Shown: positions 19,515 to 50,268 of the stretch, in pieces
Layout: each line of letters begins with the position of its first letter
How positions within the stretch are numbered: position 1 is the first letter of the stretch
Sequence record: NC_052656.1
DNA: 64,000 nt
Reading direction: 5' to 3' (one strand)
Source of the DNA: Escherichia phage anhysbys
Notes under the pieces: model-generated
Database searches by the model: none
The model's input: the letters and a program-made list of their open reading frames with translations, nothing else
Told to the model about the DNA's origin: nothing
Program-made: the position numbers and the translations under genes

Positions 19515-20207
19515 TTAAATAGCGGTTCCTTCGAAATCCGCCACATTTACGAGATTAATATTTTCAGATTTAGAAGTCAAGTTGTTTTCTGCAACAGATT
19601 TTTCTTCAGTATCCGCCTCGTTACCTGCCACGTTACGAGGTTCTTCTTCACCGTAGGGATTACCGAATTTCAAAAGATTGATCAATTCTTCTTTGGAGAA
19701 GTTTTCTAAATCATCATCTGTTAATTCAATAATCTCGTCTTGTTCTTCAATAAATGTTTCACCACCAGAAAAAGCATCTCGCTTTTTAGCTACTTCCATA
19801 GCCTGTTCTGGTGTTGCTCCTGCATCAAGAGCAGCTAAAGCAAAGTCTGACCCGCTTCCTACCGCATAATATTCTTCATCAATCGGATATGCACGTGTTG
19901 GGTTGTTACCTTCGTGCAGGAAAATACGTCCGTCTGGATGAACAACAAGTGCAATAAACTCTTCATCTTCTTTATCTGGATCAGAGTGAATCATCAAACC
20001 AGGGACAGCATCACGTGCTGCTTCGCACTGTAGATTTTGTTCAAACCATTGAAAGAAAGAAAGCACGGAGGTCAGACGACCAGCACCACCTACAAGGTAA
20101 TCTCCAATTTTTCGGACCTTTTTGAAATTAATAGAATCTACACGTCCACCAAAAGTTACCTTACCGTCACTCAAAATCTTATTTTTGGTCGCAATAATTG
20201 TCGTCAC
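19515..20207 (-). CDS. HslV / proteasome-beta-like Ntn-hydrolase peptidase
   Basis: N-terminal MTTIIATKNK (Thr nucleophile after Met), KVRKIGDYLVGGAG and AVGSGSDFALAAL align with HslV motifs; acidic C-terminal extension. Confidence 0.65.
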   Translation of the reverse strand: MTTIIATKNKILSDGKVTFGGRVDSINFKKVRKIGDYLVGGAGRLTSVLSFFQWFEQNLQCEAARDAVPGLMIHSDPDKEDEEFIALVVHPDGRIFLHEGNNPTRAYPIDEEYYAVGSGSDFALAALDAGATPEQAMEVAKKRDAFSGGETFIEEQDEIIELTDDDLENFSKEELINLLKFGNPYGEEEPRNVAGNEADTEEKSVAENNLTSKSENINLVNVADFEGTAI

Positions 20208-22201: not shown

Positions 22202-22462
22202 TTACTCCGCAATTTGAGCCATGAGATCACGCAGTTCGGTAAAACCGCCTACGTATGTTACCTCCCCGTTCACTTCAGACAGAATTTGTGGAAATGTGCG
22301 TGGAGGAACTCCGGTAAGATCAACAACTGTTTTAGTCATTGATTCTAAATCATAGTCTTGATCAAGACTTAAATATTCAAACTGTTTATTGCGCATGGTT
22401 AATAGTTGTTTTGACATTTCGCAAAATTGACAGTTAGGTTTACCAAAAATTACAAATTCCAT
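22202..22462 (-). CDS. glutaredoxin/NrdH-like redoxin
   Basis: N-terminal FGKPNCQFCEMSK (CxxC) thioredoxin-fold signature; sits near nrdAB. Confidence 0.6.
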   Translation of the reverse strand: MEFVIFGKPNCQFCEMSKQLLTMRNKQFEYLSLDQDYDLESMTKTVVDLTGVPPRTFPQILSEVNGEVTYVGGFTELRDLMAQIAE

Positions 22463-23304
22463 TACCTCTCCTTATTAAGTAATACTGCTAAAGACTGTTC
22501 AATACCTTTATTTAAATCTGATTTTGTAAGATAGTGACTGGTTACTAATTGTGACTTCACCGGACGTGCTGCTGGAGCATTATAGGTTGAAGCTGATACC
22601 GCCGATATCTTAACAGGTTCTGGCATCTGTGTCAAGATCTTTTCCGCAAACTCCGCCCAAGAAATAAAATGGCTTCCTGCAAAATGGTAAGTCTTAACAG
22701 ACCTTGACCAACCTGTTTTTAATACTTCAAAAATAGCTTCTGCTAAATCTGGAGCATATGTTGGACAAGAGAACTGATCAGCAACAACAATAAAATCACG
22801 TTGTCCATCATTATAGCGAGACAACATGGTTTTTAGAAAGTTATTTCCAAATTCGCTATATACCGAGGCTGTTCGAATAATATATGCATTTGGGTTAACT
22901 CCTCGCACCATTTTTTCACCGAGTTCTTTCGTATACCCATAATTGTTTATTGGGTTAGGTGTAGTATCTTCAAAAATAGGATGAGAATAATTAAAAATAT
23001 AATCTGTAGAAATATGCACAAAATCAATTTTAAGTTTGCTGCACACTGCCGCAATATTTGCAGGTCCATACGCATTAACAGCCAAAGCAGTAGCAAAATC
23101 ATGTTCTGCTTTATCTACAGCCGTATAAGCAGCGCAGTTAATAACACCGTCTACATAATCTTCAACAATAGCGTTTCGCACAGCTTCAAAATTTGTAATA
23201 TCTACACGTTCTTTAGGATAAATTAAAGATACATTCGAAGGAACCACTTTACGTAAAGCTTGTCCCAGTTGTCCATTACCACCTAATACCAGATATGTTA
23301 GCAT
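22462..23304 (-). CDS. rmlD: dTDP-4-dehydrorhamnose reductase
   Basis: LVLGGNGQLG NAD(P)-binding N-terminus, AAYTAVDKAE, STDYIF, YGYTK, FSCPTYAPDLA characteristic of RmlD. Confidence 0.8.
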   Translation of the reverse strand: MLTYLVLGGNGQLGQALRKVVPSNVSLIYPKERVDITNFEAVRNAIVEDYVDGVINCAAYTAVDKAEHDFATALAVNAYGPANIAAVCSKLKIDFVHISTDYIFNYSHPIFEDTTPNPINNYGYTKELGEKMVRGVNPNAYIIRTASVYSEFGNNFLKTMLSRYNDGQRDFIVVADQFSCPTYAPDLAEAIFEVLKTGWSRSVKTYHFAGSHFISWAEFAEKILTQMPEPVKISAVSASTYNAPAARPVKSQLVTSHYLTKSDLNKGIEQSLAVLLNKER

Positions 23305-23864
23305 ACACCCTCACTACGTAGCTGTTGAAAAGATTTAGCCATTGCATCTTTTGTTGATAAAATAGGTTTAAAATCTTCATCAAAAATCATATCAAAGCCC
23401 CAATCGATCCCTATATCAGGATCATCCCAACGTAAACTTTGTTCACTAGAAGGGTCGTATGGAGTTGTGCATTTGTATTCAAAGATAGCATCCATACTCA
23501 AAACTATAAAACCGTGTGCCAAACCAGGTGGAAGCCAAAACTGCGTATGGTGTCGTGCACGAAGAACAACACCGTCCCAAGCACCGTAAGTTGGACTATC
23601 TTTACGTAAATCTACAGCGAAATCCAATACTTCTCCACTTACACAACGAACAAGCTTACCTTGCGGGTTGTTTGTTTGGAAGTGCATTCCTCGCAAAACA
23701 CCGAAGTTTGATTTAGACATGTTATCTTGAACGAAAGTTTGTCTACCAATAATATCTTCGTATTTTTGTTCATTGTATGTTTCTAAAAAGAAACCACGAT
23801 CATCTTTATAAACGTCTGGTTTGATAATTACCGCACCTTCAATTTTTGTTTTTTCTACTTTCAT
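23298..23864 (-). CDS. rmlC: dTDP-4-dehydrorhamnose 3,5-epimerase
   Basis: DDRGFFLETYN, LRGMHFQ, AWDGVVL, PPGLAHGF characteristic of RmlC cupin. Confidence 0.8.
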   Translation of the reverse strand: MKVEKTKIEGAVIIKPDVYKDDRGFFLETYNEQKYEDIIGRQTFVQDNMSKSNFGVLRGMHFQTNNPQGKLVRCVSGEVLDFAVDLRKDSPTYGAWDGVVLRARHHTQFWLPPGLAHGFIVLSMDAIFEYKCTTPYDPSSEQSLRWDDPDIGIDWGFDMIFDEDFKPILSTKDAMAKSFQQLRSEGVC

Positions 23865-23873
23865 TTTCTCTCC

Positions 23874-24200
23874 TTACCAGACATGTTGAGAAATAATAGT
23901 TTCCGTTTTAATGTTATATTTTTCAAGTAGCTCTGCATAGGCTTCTTTTGCATTCTCATTTAATTGCTCAAGATCTACAGCTACGCTTCCTTCTCCGCCT
24001 TCTAAATAAATACCATATATGCAATAAGACTCATCAGCATCGTAGAAAGGAGAGATGCGACTTAAGTCCAGACCTTCTTGTAAGAACCAGTTAAAATCTC
24101 CGTCAAATTCTTCTTCAATTCTAGGATCTTCTCCTACAGCCTCTTCCCACTTATTAAAAGGTGCACCCTGTAACATACGCCATTCGATATCAATACCCAT
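23874..24200 (-). CDS. hypothetical protein
   Basis: 108-aa ORF. Confidence 0.45.
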   Translation of the reverse strand: MGIDIEWRMLQGAPFNKWEEAVGEDPRIEEEFDGDFNWFLQEGLDLSRISPFYDADESYCIYGIYLEGGEGSVAVDLEQLNENAKEAYAELLEKYNIKTETIISQHVW

Positions 24201-25807: not shown

Positions 25808-25828
25808 AAAAAGGGGCCGAAGCCCCTA
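25808..25828 (-). terminator. intrinsic terminator/attenuator between nrdA and nrdB
   Basis: Minus-strand GGGGC-UUCG-GCCCC followed by UUUUUUAUU. Confidence 0.55.
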
Positions 25829-25834
25829 GTTTCA

Positions 25835-28075
25835 TCACATCTTGCAAGCTTCACAACCACCATCAGAATCTTCTTGTGCTAAAGAGTCTGCTGATTTTGT
25901 TCTACTATTAAGGTAATACAACGACTTACCACCCAGTCTAGCAAAATTCAGAATAAACTGCATCTCAGCTTTCACTGATAAACGTCCACCTACCAATTTA
26001 GAATAATCTAGCCAAGAATCACAAGAAATTCCTTGGTCCGTAAACTTGGTAAAGATACCATACATTTCTGCAAGGTCTTTAGCAGGAGTGTCCCAGGCGG
26101 ACTGGTAGAACATTTTCAGTTTTTCGTAGTCTGGAACAATAAATAATACACTACCTTTCTGACTTTGTTTATACATAATAGTATCACGAACAGGATACAG
26201 AGAGTTAGTAGTATTGCTTACCAAACTGCTGGACTCATTAGGTGCGATAGCAGCCAAGACACTGTTACGGATACCACCTTGTTCAATGATTTCAGCACGT
26301 AAGCCTTCCCAATCCATTTTAAGATCAAAATTACCGATACTATCTACTGTTTTAGCATAAGTGTCAATTGGTAGCCAACCTTGAGGCCATTTGGTCTTAT
26401 CGATCCATTCCGCATTACCTTTTTCCTTAGCCAGACGCAGAGAGGCTTTTGCCAACCAAAAGTAATGACGTTCTGCAAGTTCATGCATTAATTTTTTAGC
26501 ATAAGCATCTGAATAATTTACAAAATTACTTGCCAAGTAATGTGCTAAGTTTGTAATACCTACACCAATAGATCTACGTGCTTTAGCAGTTATTTCGTTA
26601 TGTTTAAATGGATAATCCATTGTTTCAATAACGTTGTCAATTGTCAATACAGTGTAGTATGCAACATCCTCATATTCTTCAGGTAAGACACGACCAGCAA
26701 CAATAGAAGATAAGAAGCATAAAGCCAATTCTTGATCTTCTGTATTCTCACCAGTAAAGAGATCCGGCATACTGTGGAAAGCTTTAGTTGGTAAGAAGAT
26801 CTCTTGACACAGGTTTGATTGATACACCGTATCCAGGAAAGGTGTATGGTTGTTAACGTTGTCCGCAAAGAACATGTAAATACGTCCTGTTTCTGCACGT
26901 TGAACAATAATCTCTGTCAGAAGATCACGAGCCTTAACAAATTTTTTCTTAATGCGACGACGGCTTACTTTGTCATAAACTGCATCAAACTCTTCTTCAC
27001 TTTTATACAAAGCTTCATAAAGTTCAGGAGCATCATCACAACTAACTAACATCCAATCTTCGTTTTTTGCTGCTCGACGCAAGAACGAACGGTTAACAAC
27101 AATAGAATAATCCAGTTTGTCTACTCGTTTATCTATAGGTGTTGTTGGATTCTTCAGTCGAATCAGATCGTCGAAGTCTGGTTCAAGTATGGTAAAGGTA
27201 ACTGTAGCACTACCTCCACGGCTTGCTTGCTTCGAAGCTCCAACACTATCTTCCATCCATTTCAGATACGGAAGAAGACCACCATGAATAATACGATTAT
27301 TCTTAACACCTTGACCTGTGGCACGAGTTTGAAGATTAACACCAATACCTGCGTTATTCAACGTATACTCATGAGCTAAGTAATTAGCAATGGCTAAAGA
27401 CTCTGCTGTGTCATCTGCACGGAATAAACAACAAGACGCACTTCCTTTGATTGGAGTTCGTAGAGTTGTCAGATATGGTGATGGCAGATTAATCTTAAGA
27501 TCGCTAACATAAGTATACAGTTTTTTAATATCTTCTATACGGCGTTCTTTTGGTTGGATCTCCATAACCTTCATTGCGATACCAATGAAAAGAAACTGTG
27601 GAGACTCATGCACCACATCGTTTACTGCATCTCGGATAAGATATTTATCCACCATCTGACGTAAAACAGAATAGCCATAAGTTAGATTTTTATTATGCTT
27701 TACAATCTTACCAATTTCTTTGATCTCTTCATCAGTATAATCCATTTTAGCCCAATGTCCACGTTCTACCATATCATGATAAAAGGTATTCAGTGAAGGG
27801 ATACTGTGGTATCCCCCATGAGCCTGTTTGTAAATCATACCCAGAAGAAGTCTTCCTGCCATATCACTGTAAGCTTGTGTTTTCTTGTCAATACACGCTG
27901 CAATCATTGCTTTATGCAGATCACGTGTAGACACACCGTCATAACACCGCTTCACAGCTTCTAATTCAATTTCAGACCAGTTTAGTTTACCTGCTGCAAA
28001 TTCAGACCACTTGCGAAGTTTTTCTGGATTAAACTCCTCTATCTTACCGTTAGATTTAGTTACAAAACGAATCAA
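25835..28075 (-). CDS. nrdA: ribonucleotide reductase class Ia alpha subunit
   Basis: 746 aa; N-terminal ATP-cone-like segment, NLCQEIFLPT active-site region, C-terminal Cys pair (CEACKM). Confidence 0.9.
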   Translation of the reverse strand: MIRFVTKSNGKIEEFNPEKLRKWSEFAAGKLNWSEIELEAVKRCYDGVSTRDLHKAMIAACIDKKTQAYSDMAGRLLLGMIYKQAHGGYHSIPSLNTFYHDMVERGHWAKMDYTDEEIKEIGKIVKHNKNLTYGYSVLRQMVDKYLIRDAVNDVVHESPQFLFIGIAMKVMEIQPKERRIEDIKKLYTYVSDLKINLPSPYLTTLRTPIKGSASCCLFRADDTAESLAIANYLAHEYTLNNAGIGVNLQTRATGQGVKNNRIIHGGLLPYLKWMEDSVGASKQASRGGSATVTFTILEPDFDDLIRLKNPTTPIDKRVDKLDYSIVVNRSFLRRAAKNEDWMLVSCDDAPELYEALYKSEEEFDAVYDKVSRRRIKKKFVKARDLLTEIIVQRAETGRIYMFFADNVNNHTPFLDTVYQSNLCQEIFLPTKAFHSMPDLFTGENTEDQELALCFLSSIVAGRVLPEEYEDVAYYTVLTIDNVIETMDYPFKHNEITAKARRSIGVGITNLAHYLASNFVNYSDAYAKKLMHELAERHYFWLAKASLRLAKEKGNAEWIDKTKWPQGWLPIDTYAKTVDSIGNFDLKMDWEGLRAEIIEQGGIRNSVLAAIAPNESSSLVSNTTNSLYPVRDTIMYKQSQKGSVLFIVPDYEKLKMFYQSAWDTPAKDLAEMYGIFTKFTDQGISCDSWLDYSKLVGGRLSVKAEMQFILNFARLGGKSLYYLNSRTKSADSLAQEDSDGGCEACKM

Positions 28076-28851: not shown

Positions 28852-29850
28852 TCACCATTTAGTATGATTTGTTAAAAGTTGACGATGTTGAATCCAGCCT
28901 TTGAAATTGCCAGACCAAAACTTACCATTACGATCTACATGGGTAATACCTGGTTCCCAAGAGTTAAAATCCCAAGGAGCATTGATAAACAAATCTTCAA
29001 AACAGTTCTCCCCATATTGTTCGCATGTTTCTTGCATTGGGGTGGCTTGATGTTCAAACGGAGAAGCATGAACCTTGCGCCCAGTCAGCAAACGACCATA
29101 GATATCTAAAGCTTTATCTTTAGTTGCATTCAAACGACGATAGCTAACCTGTGCACAACACGAAGCTGAAATAGCTTTGGCTTCTTCCAAAGTAAGCACA
29201 ACAACTTCTCCAGATTCATCTTGAACATAGTATCCACCAAAAACAAAATGATCGTCACCTTCTGTGCCAATATTATCATAGAAATGGTCTACATAAGGTG
29301 TGTGCCATTGCCCTGGTTTCAGCACTTCTGGTGTAGATTCTTCATACTCTTTGTGCATCTCTTTAGCCAAAGCTTCGATAGTAGGATCGGCTTCTTTGTC
29401 ATCACGTAGCCACCAGAAATTTTCATATTCTGTTGCTGTCAGAACTGTTTTAATTCGTTGGAAAGGTTCCAGAAGACGGTTTGCAACTTGTTTGTGGTAC
29501 CCTGCCAAAGAGAATTCTTCTGCAAAACGTGCTGCACTAAGCGCGGCAAGATCCCACCACTCTTGAGCAGTATAACCTGCATCAATAAGAGCATCATGGT
29601 CAACACCTTTGTCCTGCATACCAGGTTGGTTAGCCCCAAAACGATAAGGACGAGCAGGCTGATTTCGAACCATTTCGATCAGTGTTTTAACAGGTATAGC
29701 ACGGCTAGAAGCAGCATTACGACTGAACAGGCGGTGAGTCATCAGTTCTGAATGAATAATACGTGGATATTCAAGTTCGAAAGTTACAATCTCTTTTCCG
29801 TCTTCAGTGATGGAATGCGCAATAATACTAGCCGAAATCTGTTTTGTCAT
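28852..29850 (-). CDS. thyX: ThyX-like flavin-dependent thymidylate synthase
   Basis: LMTHRLFSRNAASSR resembles the ThyX RHR...S...SxR signature; longer than typical ThyX. Confidence 0.6.
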   Translation of the reverse strand: MTKQISASIIAHSITEDGKEIVTFELEYPRIIHSELMTHRLFSRNAASSRAIPVKTLIEMVRNQPARPYRFGANQPGMQDKGVDHDALIDAGYTAQEWWDLAALSAARFAEEFSLAGYHKQVANRLLEPFQRIKTVLTATEYENFWWLRDDKEADPTIEALAKEMHKEYEESTPEVLKPGQWHTPYVDHFYDNIGTEGDDHFVFGGYYVQDESGEVVVLTLEEAKAISASCCAQVSYRRLNATKDKALDIYGRLLTGRKVHASPFEHQATPMQETCEQYGENCFEDLFINAPWDFNSWEPGITHVDRNGKFWSGNFKGWIQHRQLLTNHTKW

Positions 29851-47578: not shown

Positions 47579-47948
47579 AACTGTATTAAGTTTTGTTTTA
47601 ATTGTTATTCTTGCAGGAATGTTTGCTTATAACAAGATACGTGAGTCTGGCTACAAAGATGGTGTTGCCTATCAAACACAAGTATATCAAGCAGCCCAAG
47701 CAAAAGCAAAACAAGATTTTGATGTTCTTCAAAAAAGAGCAGATGAAGAAAGAGCATTATTAAATACTCAAATAAACAACTTGTCTAAAAACAATGCACA
47801 ATTAAAAGCAGATTTAGAGAAGAAGAAACAAACGATCAATGAGGATACAACGAATTATGCAAAAACTAATTCTGGCAGTATGTCTTGCTTTGCCCCTAAT
47901 GATGACGGGTTGTTCATCATCAACAAAAGTTTCCCCAGTTCTTATTGA
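47562..47948 (+). CDS. i-spanin (Rz-like)
   Basis: N-terminal TM segment TVLSFVLIVILAGMFAY followed by coiled-coil periplasmic domain; o-spanin gene embedded at its 3' end. Confidence 0.6.
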   Translation: MNLKTKTVLSFVLIVILAGMFAYNKIRESGYKDGVAYQTQVYQAAQAKAKQDFDVLQKRADEERALLNTQINNLSKNNAQLKADLEKKKQTINEDTTNYAKTNSGSMSCFAPNDDGLFIINKSFPSSY

Positions 47949-48183
47949 TGAGTGTAAGGCTGTAGCCATAGAAAAGGTTAAAGGTCCAGATTCGGACTTG
48001 ATGGATAAAGTATCGACACCTGTGCCATACACTAAAAATCAAATTGCAAAAGGGGTTAGTAGATCTGAAGTTGTTAACAACCAAACTCAAAACAATGCTC
48101 TTTGGGAGCAAGATAGACGAAAGGTTCTAGGTTTACAAACATATATTAAAACACTGCAAGAAAAAGGTATTATTGCTGAATAA
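47839..48183 (+). CDS. o-spanin (Rz1-like outer-membrane lipoprotein)
   Basis: Lipobox LALPLMMTGC; starts inside the i-spanin gene in a different frame and extends beyond it. Confidence 0.55.
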   Translation: MRIQRIMQKLILAVCLALPLMMTGCSSSTKVSPVLIDECKAVAIEKVKGPDSDLMDKVSTPVPYTKNQIAKGVSRSEVVNNQTQNNALWEQDRRKVLGLQTYIKTLQEKGIIAE

Positions 48184-48192
48184 GGAGGGAAT

Positions 48193-50268
48193 GTGGCAAA
48201 GAAAAAGGCAGCAGGTAGTTTAGCTGGAGTAGATATTGAAGTAAAGGCTCAACCAGGTAAACAGACTCTTGCAATGGATTTAATGCCAGAAGTTATGATT
48301 TATGGTGGTGCCGCTGGATGTGTTTCTGCTGAAACGGAATATCTTACAAAAGATGGTTGGAGGCAGATTAGTGAATATTCGGGAGAGGATATTTACCAAT
48401 ATAATCCTAAGAATAAGCGTTTAGAATTGGTAACACCTTATTTTGTAGAATACGATTTAAATGGAGATAACCTATACAGAATAACAAATGGTGTAGGATT
48501 ATTCCAAGAACTTAGTATGGAACACCGTTTTGTATTCTATAAGAAAAAGAAATCAAAGAAACATTTCGAGATTCTTGTAGGAGATCTTATTGCATTACAG
48601 CAAATAGGAAAACCCCTGCAAGGTTATGTAGAAAATCCATTCGGTAAACGTGTTCCTTTTAACATACCTGGTAAAAAGAGCACTTACTTAAAAATACACG
48701 AGGTTATTTCAACAGATGATAAGAAATATTGTTTTGAGACTCCAAGCAGCTATATTGTCTTTAGACGTGGCGATCACTGCTTCGTTACTGGGAATAGCGG
48801 CAAGTCTCGTCTGCTATTGCTGAAAGCTTTAAAATACGCCTACAAAGACCCTTTGTTTGGTGGAATACTTTTCCGTAAGAACACCACTGCTCACCGTAAA
48901 CCAGGTGGTCTGTTTACAGAAGCAAAACGTTTGTATCTTCCTTTACAACCACACGTAAAAGAAAGTACAATGGATATCATTTTTGAAGCCACTGGTGGTG
49001 GAACCCTCAAATTTGACCATTTGGAAAATGATAACGTAACAGCAGAAACAAACCATCAGGGTACCCAGTATTCAATGGTAGGTTTTGACGAGTTAACCCA
49101 CTTCACACAATATGAAATGCTATATCTTCTGGGACGTATGCGTTCAGAGTCAGAAACAAGTTTCATGTTGTGCACATGTAACCCTGACGCAGATAGTTGG
49201 GTTTTGAATTGGGTGTTACCTTATCTTGATGAGGGTGGTTATCCTAGAGAAGATATGTGTGGTAAACAAAAATATTTCATCATTGTTAACGATGAACCTG
49301 TTTTTGCTGACACACCTGAAGAACTGAAAGAAAAATATCCAGAAAACTGTTTCATGGAAAACCCTAATACAGGGGAGACAGTTGTTATTGAACCACAAAC
49401 TTTCGTATTTATTGGTGGGACAATATTTGATAACCCAGAACTCATTAGGCTTAACCCTAATTACTTAGCACAGCTTAAATCACAAACAGCGATCAAAAGA
49501 GCACAGCTTCTGGACGGTTGTTGGTTTGCACGTATCCAGAAAGAATCTTTCTTTCAACGTGAATGGTTACATAAAATATCTTATAAAGATGTTCCTAACA
49601 ATCTTAAACTAATGCGAGCATGGGATAAAGCTGTTTCAGTTCCTACAGAAACTTACCGTTATCCAGACTATACAACATCTGTCAAAATGGGTAAAGATCA
49701 AGATGGTAATATCTACATCTTTGGCGACTATGATTATGATGCTGTGGATGAGAAAAGTAAAATTTTCGGAAGGTTTCGAAGACTACCTGGGGAAAGGGAT
49801 AACCTGATTCTAAATCAATGTAAGATTGATGGACCAGAAGTTACAGTAGTGCTTCCTAAAGACCCATCTGGTGCTGGGACAATAGAATACACAGAGTCTG
49901 CAAAGAAACTTATTCTAGAAGGTTTTGTTGTTAAACCAGATGCTATGCCAGGTAACAAGAAAAAGCTTCAGCGTTTTATGCCTTTTAGTAGTGCGTGTCA
50001 AAACGGTTTTGTTTATATTGTTGAAGATTCTTTCCCTAATGTGGAAACTTTAACCCACTTTTATAAAGAATTGGAATCTTTCAATGGTGAAAGATCTACA
50101 GCCACTATTAAAGATGACATTCCCGATGCTGCTGCCTCTTGTTTTAATACTCTGTCAAAAGAGAATACTTTCAAAGCAGTAGCTATCCCTACAACAACAA
50201 ATGCTCCTACAGGATACAGTAGAATGAACAGCGGATTTCACCAGCCGTATAGTGTCCGTAAAAGATAA
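48193..50268 (+). CDS. terminase large subunit (intein-containing)
   Basis: Walker A GAAG|SGKS split by the insertion, Walker B MVGFDELTH, C-terminal nuclease-size domain; GTG start after AAGGAGGG. Confidence 0.8.
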   Translation: MAKKKAAGSLAGVDIEVKAQPGKQTLAMDLMPEVMIYGGAAGCVSAETEYLTKDGWRQISEYSGEDIYQYNPKNKRLELVTPYFVEYDLNGDNLYRITNGVGLFQELSMEHRFVFYKKKKSKKHFEILVGDLIALQQIGKPLQGYVENPFGKRVPFNIPGKKSTYLKIHEVISTDDKKYCFETPSSYIVFRRGDHCFVTGNSGKSRLLLLKALKYAYKDPLFGGILFRKNTTAHRKPGGLFTEAKRLYLPLQPHVKESTMDIIFEATGGGTLKFDHLENDNVTAETNHQGTQYSMVGFDELTHFTQYEMLYLLGRMRSESETSFMLCTCNPDADSWVLNWVLPYLDEGGYPREDMCGKQKYFIIVNDEPVFADTPEELKEKYPENCFMENPNTGETVVIEPQTFVFIGGTIFDNPELIRLNPNYLAQLKSQTAIKRAQLLDGCWFARIQKESFFQREWLHKISYKDVPNNLKLMRAWDKAVSVPTETYRYPDYTTSVKMGKDQDGNIYIFGDYDYDAVDEKSKIFGRFRRLPGERDNLILNQCKIDGPEVTVVLPKDPSGAGTIEYTESAKKLILEGFVVKPDAMPGNKKKLQRFMPFSSACQNGFVYIVEDSFPNVETLTHFYKELESFNGERSTATIKDDIPDAAASCFNTLSKENTFKAVAIPTTTNAPTGYSRMNSGFHQPYSVRKR
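48319..48795 (+). mobile_element. putative mini-intein (159 aa) in the terminase P-loop
   Basis: Insertion begins with Cys and ends ...FVTGN immediately before Ser; excising it restores GAAGSGKS; too short to carry a homing endonuclease domain. Confidence 0.6.

Follow-up and report, generated by a model that had tools for sequence, protein, structure and literature searches.

The 64,000-nucleotide stretch of Escherichia phage anhysbys analysed here (NC_052656.1; hereafter the window) carries on its minus strand two adjacent genes, rmlC and rmlD, for the last two steps of deoxythymidine diphosphate (dTDP)-L-rhamnose synthesis, and it carries them without rmlA and rmlB. Both are real, intact phage genes in which all catalytic residues are kept. 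The explanation that we consider best, at a probability of roughly 0.6, is that RmlC and RmlD are active, are fed with an intermediate by the host, and serve glycosyltransferases encoded by the phage itself. If so, the pair would provide a clean, testable case of a virus that has trimmed a pathway to the steps for which its host cannot be relied upon.

The window derives from a Phapecoctavirus (a phAPEC8-like E. coli myovirus, subfamily Stephanstirmvirinae). Its 3.5-kb rml neighbourhood is 98-99.5% identical to that of many Phapecoctavirus genomes, with phages dw-ec and ETEC-TG as the best matches, and the full window is collinear with ETEC-TG 21,757-86,522 at 98.5-99.4% identity. The rml genes are already annotated in dozens of GenBank records, and both the pair and its rmlA/rmlB-less form are known from the literature. 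Olsen et al. (2020) described the dTDP-rhamnose pathway as complete in phapecoctaviruses and in phages like phi92 and speculated on DNA glycosylation (PMC7552041), Nicolas et al. (2023) reported phage ESCO37 to be without the thymidylyltransferase and dehydratase genes (PMC10269720), and Maffei et al. (2021) found this phage group to be exceptionally sensitive to restriction-modification despite a "putative dTDP glycosylation machinery" (PMC8594841). A literature search on glycosylated phi92 virions or a role of phage-encoded dTDP-rhamnose returned nothing relevant. What is added here is the exact mechanism of the deletion and its frequency in the population, the finding that rmlA and rmlB are lost repeatedly whereas rmlC and rmlD are not, the logic of host complementation with counts to accompany it, and the presence, fold and wider distribution of a glycosyltransferase module.

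The rmlC-rmlD pair and the rmlB-rmlA deletion

The original prediction, made from the sequence alone, had placed clear RmlD and RmlC homologs side by side at 22462-23864, and the open reading frames (ORFs) fall exactly there: rmlC (dTDP-4-dehydrorhamnose 3,5-epimerase, 188 aa) at 23298..23864 and rmlD (dTDP-4-dehydrorhamnose reductase, 280 aa) at 22462..23304, both on the minus strand. Each product passes the cut-off of its NCBIfam equivalog model, RmlC comfortably (TIGR01221, 225.4 bits against 155.75, model positions 1-174 of 176) and RmlD by a narrow margin (TIGR01214, 239.5 bits against 224.05), and each matches its Pfam family, PF00908 (dTDP_sugar_isom; E 1.1e-66, 224.1 bits, cut-off 27) and PF04321 (RmlD_sub_bind; E 1.5e-73), respectively. 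RmlD falls below the enterobacterial-type model NF007440 (118.6 against 308). Among solved structures, the phage RmlC aligns over its full length with Salmonella RmlC (1dzr; residues 3-178, E 4e-56), true RmlCs being matched at E values near 1e-56 while mono-epimerases of the NovW and ChmJ type follow far behind (E 1e-30 to 1e-26); RmlD likewise aligns over its full length with solved RmlDs, best with 3sc6 of Bacillus anthracis and with 1vl0 (E ~1e-44). His61, Lys70, Tyr130 and Asp173 of the phage RmlC align to His63, Lys73, Tyr133 and Asp170 of 1dzr, which we take to be the His63/Asp170 dyad, the acid Tyr133 and the substrate-binding Lys73 of the Salmonella enzyme. In RmlD, the dinucleotide-binding motif G8xxG11xxG14 is present, as is the triad of short-chain dehydrogenases/reductases (Thr100 in STDYIF, Tyr122-xxx-Lys126 in YGYTK). 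In fold, full-length alignment and catalytic residues the two proteins thus resemble their bacterial counterparts (1dzr, 3sc6 and E. coli rfbC/rfbD), and the half-pathway is very probably functional; unlike the bacterial genes, which lie in O-antigen clusters, the phage genes sit in a nucleotide-metabolism operon.

The absence of RmlA and RmlB from the window, also part of the original prediction, was borne out: tblastn with the phAPEC8 proteins returned no match for RmlA (best E 0.096) and, for RmlB, only a paralogous match to RmlD (E 2e-5). The prediction had further pointed to the rest of the genome as a place to look for the missing enzymes, and in the complete, near-identical ETEC-TG genome tblastn found neither. 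Both genes are present in phAPEC8 (gp166-169), in phi92 (gp067-064) and in L026, a divergent 151.5-kb metagenomic relative with the full four-gene operon, in the order rmlB-rmlA-rmlC-rmlD; because the operon occupies the same syntenic place in all three, we regard this order as ancestral. The window shares the site and synteny of phAPEC8 and phi92 (nrdA, nrdB, small ORFs, rml, glutaredoxin, lysozyme, PhoH), its rmlC-rmlD DNA being 97.9% identical to that of phAPEC8 and its RmlC and RmlD proteins 62% and 54% identical to those of phi92, and it differs from them in being without rmlB and rmlA. The scar of their removal, identified by comparison with phAPEC8, is the motif GGAGA that constitutes the Shine-Dalgarno sequence of rmlC (23869..23873, minus strand). 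In phAPEC8 this motif stands before rmlB and again before rmlC, and the copies stand 1,876 bp apart in seven of seven rmlBA-positive genomes; the window has a single copy, in the context TGGTAA-GGAGA-GAAAATG. The window allele is a clean 1,876-bp deletion between two ribosome-binding sites that spares that of rmlC.

The same junction recurs without change in all ten rmlCD-only genomes examined, whose places of origin include Indonesia, France, Egypt, Denmark and Thailand. The rmlA/rmlB-less phapecoctaviruses (ESCO37, ETEC-TG, dw-ec, ZCKP1, nepoznato, Mt1B1_P17 and others) share both junction and gene content with the window, which differs from them in practically nothing and represents a further isolate or copy of that allele. 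By megablast, rmlC-rmlD are found in 63 records, approximately 42 of which also have a phAPEC8-type rmlB-rmlA, so that about one third are rmlCD-only, counts that contain RefSeq/GenBank duplicates both with and without rmlBA. For the population set, 16 GenBank loci were retrieved; a scan of IMG/VR with RmlC gave only two loci. In three local neighbor-joining trees, one for rmlC-rmlD and one for each of its flanks, genomes with and without rmlBA interleave, and the closest rmlC-rmlD to that of the window (99.9%) belongs to phage BI-EHEC, which has rmlBA. Taken together, the interleaving and the BI-EHEC match suggest that the insertion/deletion behaves as an allele shuffled by recombination; the same interleaving rules out that the rmlBA-less phages are a single clade. 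A documented recombinant of ESCO5 and ESCO37, named REC (PMC10269720), fits such shuffling. E. coli K-12 MG1655 has yielded phages of both alleles, nepoznato without rmlBA and tuntematon, nieznany and ukendt with it, consistent with rmlBA being dispensable on that host.

A further form of mosaicism was observed in the same operon. Phages phiWec179/181/186/188/190 (LC739533-LC739539) and PsgM04F (OR584014) have a phAPEC8-type rmlB-rmlA at 86-94% DNA identity, while in the two phiWec phages checked the RmlC protein is only ~64-65% identical, and in phiWec179, phiWec186, phiWec188, phiWec190 and PsgM04F just 43 bp of rmlC-rmlD match in DNA. Since the one half of the operon is alike and the other is not, a recombination breakpoint between rmlA and rmlC is indicated for these phages.

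The loss of rmlA and rmlB has not been a single event. In the Phapecoctavirus DIJ07P2 (OZ035771.1, 117,794-122,467), an out-of-frame deletion of 811 bp, separate from that of the window and possibly an assembly artefact, has cut RmlB from 330 to 306 aa and removed most of rmlA, leaving rmlC (567 nt) and rmlD (843 nt) whole and giving the locus a third allele. The metagenomic relative L025 has only orf107-rmlC-rmlD; compared with the full-operon L026, identity is 75% for its RmlC and 61% for its RmlD, but compared with the window only 64% and 53%. As such, we count at least three independent losses of rmlA/rmlB (the window allele, DIJ07P2 and L025), with rmlC and rmlD kept each time. All 17 phapecoctavirus loci hold both retained genes at full length (rmlC 567 nt, rmlD 843 nt), and their ratios of nonsynonymous to synonymous substitution (dN/dS) are 0.03 for rmlC and 0.10-0.18 for rmlD, alike in rmlBA-less and rmlBA-positive genomes. 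Among the rmlBA-less genomes alone the values are 0.03 and 0.10, at synonymous diversities of 0.09 and 0.03, part of which may be older than the deletion, as the alleles recombine. Where present, rmlB and rmlA are constrained as well, with dN/dS values of 0.11 and 0.13. Both rmlC and rmlD are under purifying selection.

The pair is also not of recent host origin. RmlD homologs descend from 99% to 51% identity, many of them on contigs of 110-157 kb, the scale of whole phages, and beyond this identity falls to ~42%, where the cellular RmlDs of Bacteroidota, Halobacteriovorax and Erwinia are encountered; the best E. coli DNA match to the phage genes (rfbC, by blastn) is 66% identical over 19% of the query. 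The original prediction had allowed that the genes might prove to be a recent, non-functional fragment of host DNA, an origin ruled out by this distant E. coli match, the gap in RmlD identity and the dN/dS values.

Probable host supply and the phage glycosyltransferases

If the phage makes only the last two steps, the substrate of RmlC would most plausibly come from the host, and the distribution of the host genes is in keeping with such a supply. A locus of RmlA/RmlB type was found in 5423 of 5426 complete E. coli genomes by blastn with the phage rmlBA, the features under the matches being annotated as rffG and rfbA (rfbA/rffH, the pair of the enterobacterial common antigen (ECA) cluster) or as rfbB/rfbA. 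RffG and RffH make dTDP-4-keto-6-deoxy-D-glucose for ECA. These two are said, by Marolda and Valvano in 1995, to replace rfbB and rfbA functionally. By comparison, rfbD was found in 2364 of the 5426 genomes (44%), a lower bound at the sensitivity of blastn; the E. coli rfbD served as query because the phage rmlCD, matching 14 genomes, were too insensitive for host counting. Given near-universal rffG/rffH-type loci and an rfbD in fewer than half of the strains, it is reasonable to postulate that RmlC can rely on the host for its substrate, that the two closing steps vary from host to host, and that the phage has kept exactly the variable half.

The scheme that we propose begins with an ancestral phage operon, rmlB-rmlA-rmlC-rmlD, from which rmlB and rmlA were cut out between the two ribosome-binding sites. 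The host would provide dTDP-4-keto-6-deoxy-D-glucose, through RffH/RffG in nearly all E. coli and in many through RmlA/RmlB as well, and the phage RmlC and RmlD would turn this intermediate into dTDP-L-rhamnose, also in those E. coli strains, the majority, that have no rmlC/rmlD of their own. The sugar nucleotide would then, most probably, be used during lytic growth by the phage's own glycosyltransferases, encoded outside the window, on an acceptor for which virion proteins are our favoured guess.

Candidates for this last step exist. That no glycosyltransferase was recognised, as the original prediction had it, holds for the window, in which tblastn with four phage glycosyltransferases found none, and fails for the genome, as near-identical ETEC-TG carries a row of four glycosyltransferase genes at 117,160-120,304, between primase/helicase and endolysin genes and ~30.6 kb past the window end. 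In transcription order they encode GTd (187 aa), GT3 (227 aa), GTb (315 aa) and GTa (314 aa), the last being 41% identical to GTb. GT3 has an invariant DDD motif and is modelled by AlphaFold (predicted local distance difference test, pLDDT, 87.7) as a minimal GT-A fold, whose closest solved folds are STIV A197 (the closest), vaccinia H3, phage-encoded TarP and the glycosyltransferase domain of LH3, at TM-scores of 0.41-0.50. The model of GTa (pLDDT 93.3) is a GT-B fold of GT4 type, closest to PglA, BshA/MshA, PimA, GtfC/Gtf3 and SdgB. The fold searches with GT3 and GTa discriminate neither donor nor acceptor. RmlC, GT3 and GTa share a distribution of ~130 genomes, comprising Phapecoctavirus, Justusliebigvirus and a few Klebsiella/Citrobacter relatives, with no Vequintavirus among the RmlC and glycosyltransferase matches listed, as judged from counts and sampled rows.

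Part of the module is distributed more widely. GTd-GT3-GTb, in the same order, separate lysis cassette and terminase in an HK97-like prophage of Serratia (L027:5589-7670), and GT3-GTb lie in lambdoid metagenomic contigs, with the Q-antiterminator region on one side and lysis genes on the other (L028:9394-10969). This late-region site in temperate prophages fits a function in the lytic cycle, and the distribution as a whole suggests a phage-specific module that acts there. GTa, the extra paralog, is limited to the lineage that carries rml, and on this ground it might, speculatively, be a candidate rhamnosyltransferase.

Several observations weigh against the scheme as a whole. The Serratia prophage and the lambdoid contigs have no rml on the contig, from which it follows that the module does not strictly need a phage rml, and the link between rml and the glycosyltransferases is one of co-distribution inside a single phage lineage and is phylogenetically non-independent. 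The fold neighbours of GTa use uridine diphosphate (UDP)- or guanosine diphosphate-D-sugars, and no known rhamnosyltransferase ranks high among them. As RmlD exceeds its equivalog cut-off by only 15 bits, homology does not settle the product at C4, which could be L-rhamnose or 6-deoxy-L-talose. In K-12 and other hosts with a rhamnose-containing O-antigen, which already make dTDP-rhamnose, the phage genes look redundant. Last, a relative known from a 12.3-kb contig (L024; Logan SRR22936719, 6340-7167) has rmlD alone between nrdB and the glutaredoxin gene, 51% identical and with intact catalytic motifs; no rmlC, rmlA or rmlB lies on that contig, though rmlC may sit elsewhere in the genome, and an rmlD-only phage is not accounted for by host complementation.

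Possible uses of the sugar

The main interest of this system lies in how a virulent coliphage would use a donor of a 6-deoxyhexose. Our tentative proposal, which we would put well short of even odds, is that the Stephanstirmvirinae, this phage among them, attach a glycan containing rhamnose to the proteins of their own virions, the glycan being made by GTd, GT3, GTb and GTa from dTDP-L-rhamnose whose synthesis the phage completes. A use intrinsic to the virion or the phage is favoured by the late-region site of the module, by the viral GT-A fold neighbours of GT3 and by the homology of GT3 to glycosyltransferases of cluster-F mycobacteriophages (25-27% identity over ~130 aa, E 1e-7 to 1e-8, ~330 records). 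Phages Che8 and Rita of that cluster carry capsid glycans (Freeman et al. 2023, as cited in PMC11256854), and there too the phage encodes a set of several glycosyltransferases. The present case differs in its Gram-negative host and in that the homology of GT3 is confined to the nucleotide-binding half of the GT-A fold. Ser/Thr-rich C-terminal tails were sought on capsid and tail proteins and nothing distinctive was found, a further point against this proposal. If true, phages of Gram-negative bacteria would have their first described virion glycosylation system, and its core module would also be widespread in temperate enterobacterial prophages. Phages of this kind, namely isolates of the ESCO, AV and BI-EHEC types, are used in cocktails for therapy and biocontrol, and a virion glycan could alter antibody recognition, mucus binding and pharmacokinetics, as has been shown in mycobacteriophages.

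The sugar could instead be directed at the host envelope, either through dTDP-rhamnose itself or through diversion of the ECA intermediate, so that lipopolysaccharide, O-antigen or ECA is altered, for example against superinfection or adsorption to debris. RmlC and RmlD would draw on the very intermediate that feeds ECA, by way of the near-universal rffG/rffH locus, the GT4 neighbours of GTa include enzymes of lipid-linked glycans (PglA, PimA), those of GT3 include TarP, a phage-encoded modifier of wall teichoic acid, and surface glycans are receptors for the multiple tail fibres of this group (PMC8594841). However, the ETEC-TG annotation has no membrane, flippase or polymerase components beside the glycosyltransferases; surface conversion is typical of temperate phages and lysogens, whereas this phage is virulent and even the temperate homologs of its glycosyltransferases lie in the late lytic region; and the ancestral rmlA and rmlB speak for additional sugar output and not for mere diversion. 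We consider envelope remodelling doubtful for these reasons. Glycosylation of phage DNA, for which Olsen et al. invoked the analogy of T4 and its glucosyl-hydroxymethylcytosine (PMC7552041), would employ dTDP-rhamnose as donor for a rhamnosylated modified base. In its favour, the rml genes sit among genes of nucleotide metabolism, as the sugar-handling genes of T4 lie near those of DNA metabolism, the glycosyltransferase cluster adjoins primase/helicase and DNA polymerase genes, and GT3 faintly resembles TAGT (PF20691, 19.5 bits) as well as the hydroxymethylcytosine glucosyltransferase of T-even phages (phrog_842, E 7.6e-6). The TAGT match, though, covers 37 residues only and lies below the cut-off of 27.5, the homology to DNA glycosyltransferases does not appear significant, and the fold search with GT3 leads to minimal GT-A enzymes of a generic kind, no DNA glycosyltransferase among them. 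Unlike in T4, no dCMP/dUMP hydroxymethylase is annotated among the 315 features of ETEC-TG, nor is TET/JBP or a hydroxymethyluracil kinase (not every hypothetical protein was profiled), the sole thymidylate-synthase-like gene is of ThyX type by Pfam, and the donor would be a dTDP-6-deoxyhexose in place of UDP-glucose. Furthermore, phi92-like relatives are reported to be exceptionally susceptible to restriction-modification (PMC8594841, PMC10844046), the phi92-like BASEL isolates JohannJBalmer and EmilieFrey having the same rml and glycosyltransferase genes, and the core glycosyltransferase module is found in ordinary lambdoid prophages as well. Of the three uses considered at the outset, namely phage DNA, phage proteins and host surface polysaccharide, that of DNA is accordingly the least likely, and we judge it quite improbable.

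Two further explanations dispense with glycosyl transfer altogether. Were rmlC and rmlD functionless passengers that await decay after the loss of rmlA/rmlB, the incompleteness of the phage pathway would be explained, and the rmlD-only L024 could be read as a stage in progressive decay; but the genes are full-length in all ten rmlCD-only genomes from several countries as well as in DIJ07P2 and L025, dN/dS is low where rmlBA is absent, every catalytic residue is kept, and the deletion precisely spares the ribosome-binding site of rmlC, so that a relic is very hard to credit. RmlA is inhibited by dTDP-L-rhamnose. The product might hence act by feedback on the glucose-1-phosphate thymidylyltransferase of the host and spare deoxythymidine triphosphate (dTTP) for phage DNA replication, which would suit the location of rml between nrdB and the glutaredoxin gene, in a nucleotide-supply operon in all relatives, and would fit the loss of rmlA and rmlB. 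Such control of the nucleotide pool is nonetheless highly improbable: the ancestral and still common operon has a phage RmlA under purifying selection that is itself a consumer of dTTP, and the co-distributed glycosyltransferase cluster is left unexplained. Supply of an active, host-fed RmlC/RmlD pair to the phage glycosyltransferases thus stays the best explanation.

Gene neighbourhood and related phages

That the pair lies among genes of nucleotide metabolism, as first proposed, is corroborated by the identification of NrdA, NrdB, glutaredoxin, a ThyX-like protein and PhoH around it. The start of rmlD and the end of rmlC overlap by seven nucleotides, from the rmlD ATG to the rmlC stop codon (ATGCTAA), and the stop codon of rmlD overlaps the ATG of the glutaredoxin gene (TAATG; gene at 22202..22462, minus strand; PF00462 Glutaredoxin, E 1.8e-9), an order of rmlD followed by glutaredoxin that is also seen in phi92, L024, L025 and L026. 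From these overlaps, rmlC and rmlD are expected to be co-expressed in the string of genes from nrdB to PhoH, and rmlC, rmlD and the glutaredoxin gene form what is predicted to be one translationally coupled string. Upstream, orf108 (108 aa; 23874..24200, minus strand; phrog_15453) touches the deletion junction with its stop codon; a Pfam search gave no match for it, and its counterpart precedes rmlB in phAPEC8, phi92 (gp069) and L026 and rmlC in L025. Going upstream from the co-directional genes (nrdB, small ORFs, rmlC, rmlD, grx, lysozyme, PhoH), the first punctuation is a terminator-like GC hairpin in the gap between nrdA and nrdB (25812..25827, minus strand), found by a pattern scan as AGGGGCTTCGGCCCCT followed by a T run and resting on a match to consensus. 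A promoter and terminator scan returned 50 promoter-like sites against 38 expected and was uninformative on a dedicated rml promoter.

The same gap between nrdA and nrdB is ~0.7 kb shorter in the window than in ETEC-TG. At 25827-25863 the window is without the HNH homing-endonuclease gene that ETEC-TG (47,586-48,292) and phi92 (L022:272-928) have there, and phAPEC8 has a different small ORF in this place; within the ribonucleotide reductase operon the HNH gene therefore represents a presence/absence polymorphism of a mobile endonuclease.

The host labels of some related records appear doubtful. Four phages carry non-enterobacterial labels, MG065650 (B15), MG065656 (C3), OP562383 (ABPW7) and OR584014 (PsgM04F), and contamination or mislabelling may be at work: Campylobacter phage B15 and Acinetobacter phage ABPW7 are 98-99% identical to E. 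coli phapecoctaviruses, Campylobacter phage C3 has phi92-type RmlC and GTa proteins in common, and Pseudomonas phage PsgM04F shares only the rmlB-rmlA segment, at ~94%.

Two other genes of the window, both on the minus strand, deserve mention. The ThyX-like protein (332 aa, 28852-29850) has a weak match to Pfam Thy1 (35 bits, model positions 59-191), is far longer than a typical ThyX and is kept in L026; the weak match and the extra length suggest a divergent member of the flavin-dependent thymidylate synthases or an enzyme related to them. A protein of 230 aa (19515-20207), called "peptidase HslV family" in relatives, has a faint match to Pfam Proteasome (25.6 bits, residues 11-61) and appears to be a proteasome-like phage subunit, also present in phi92, L025 and L026.

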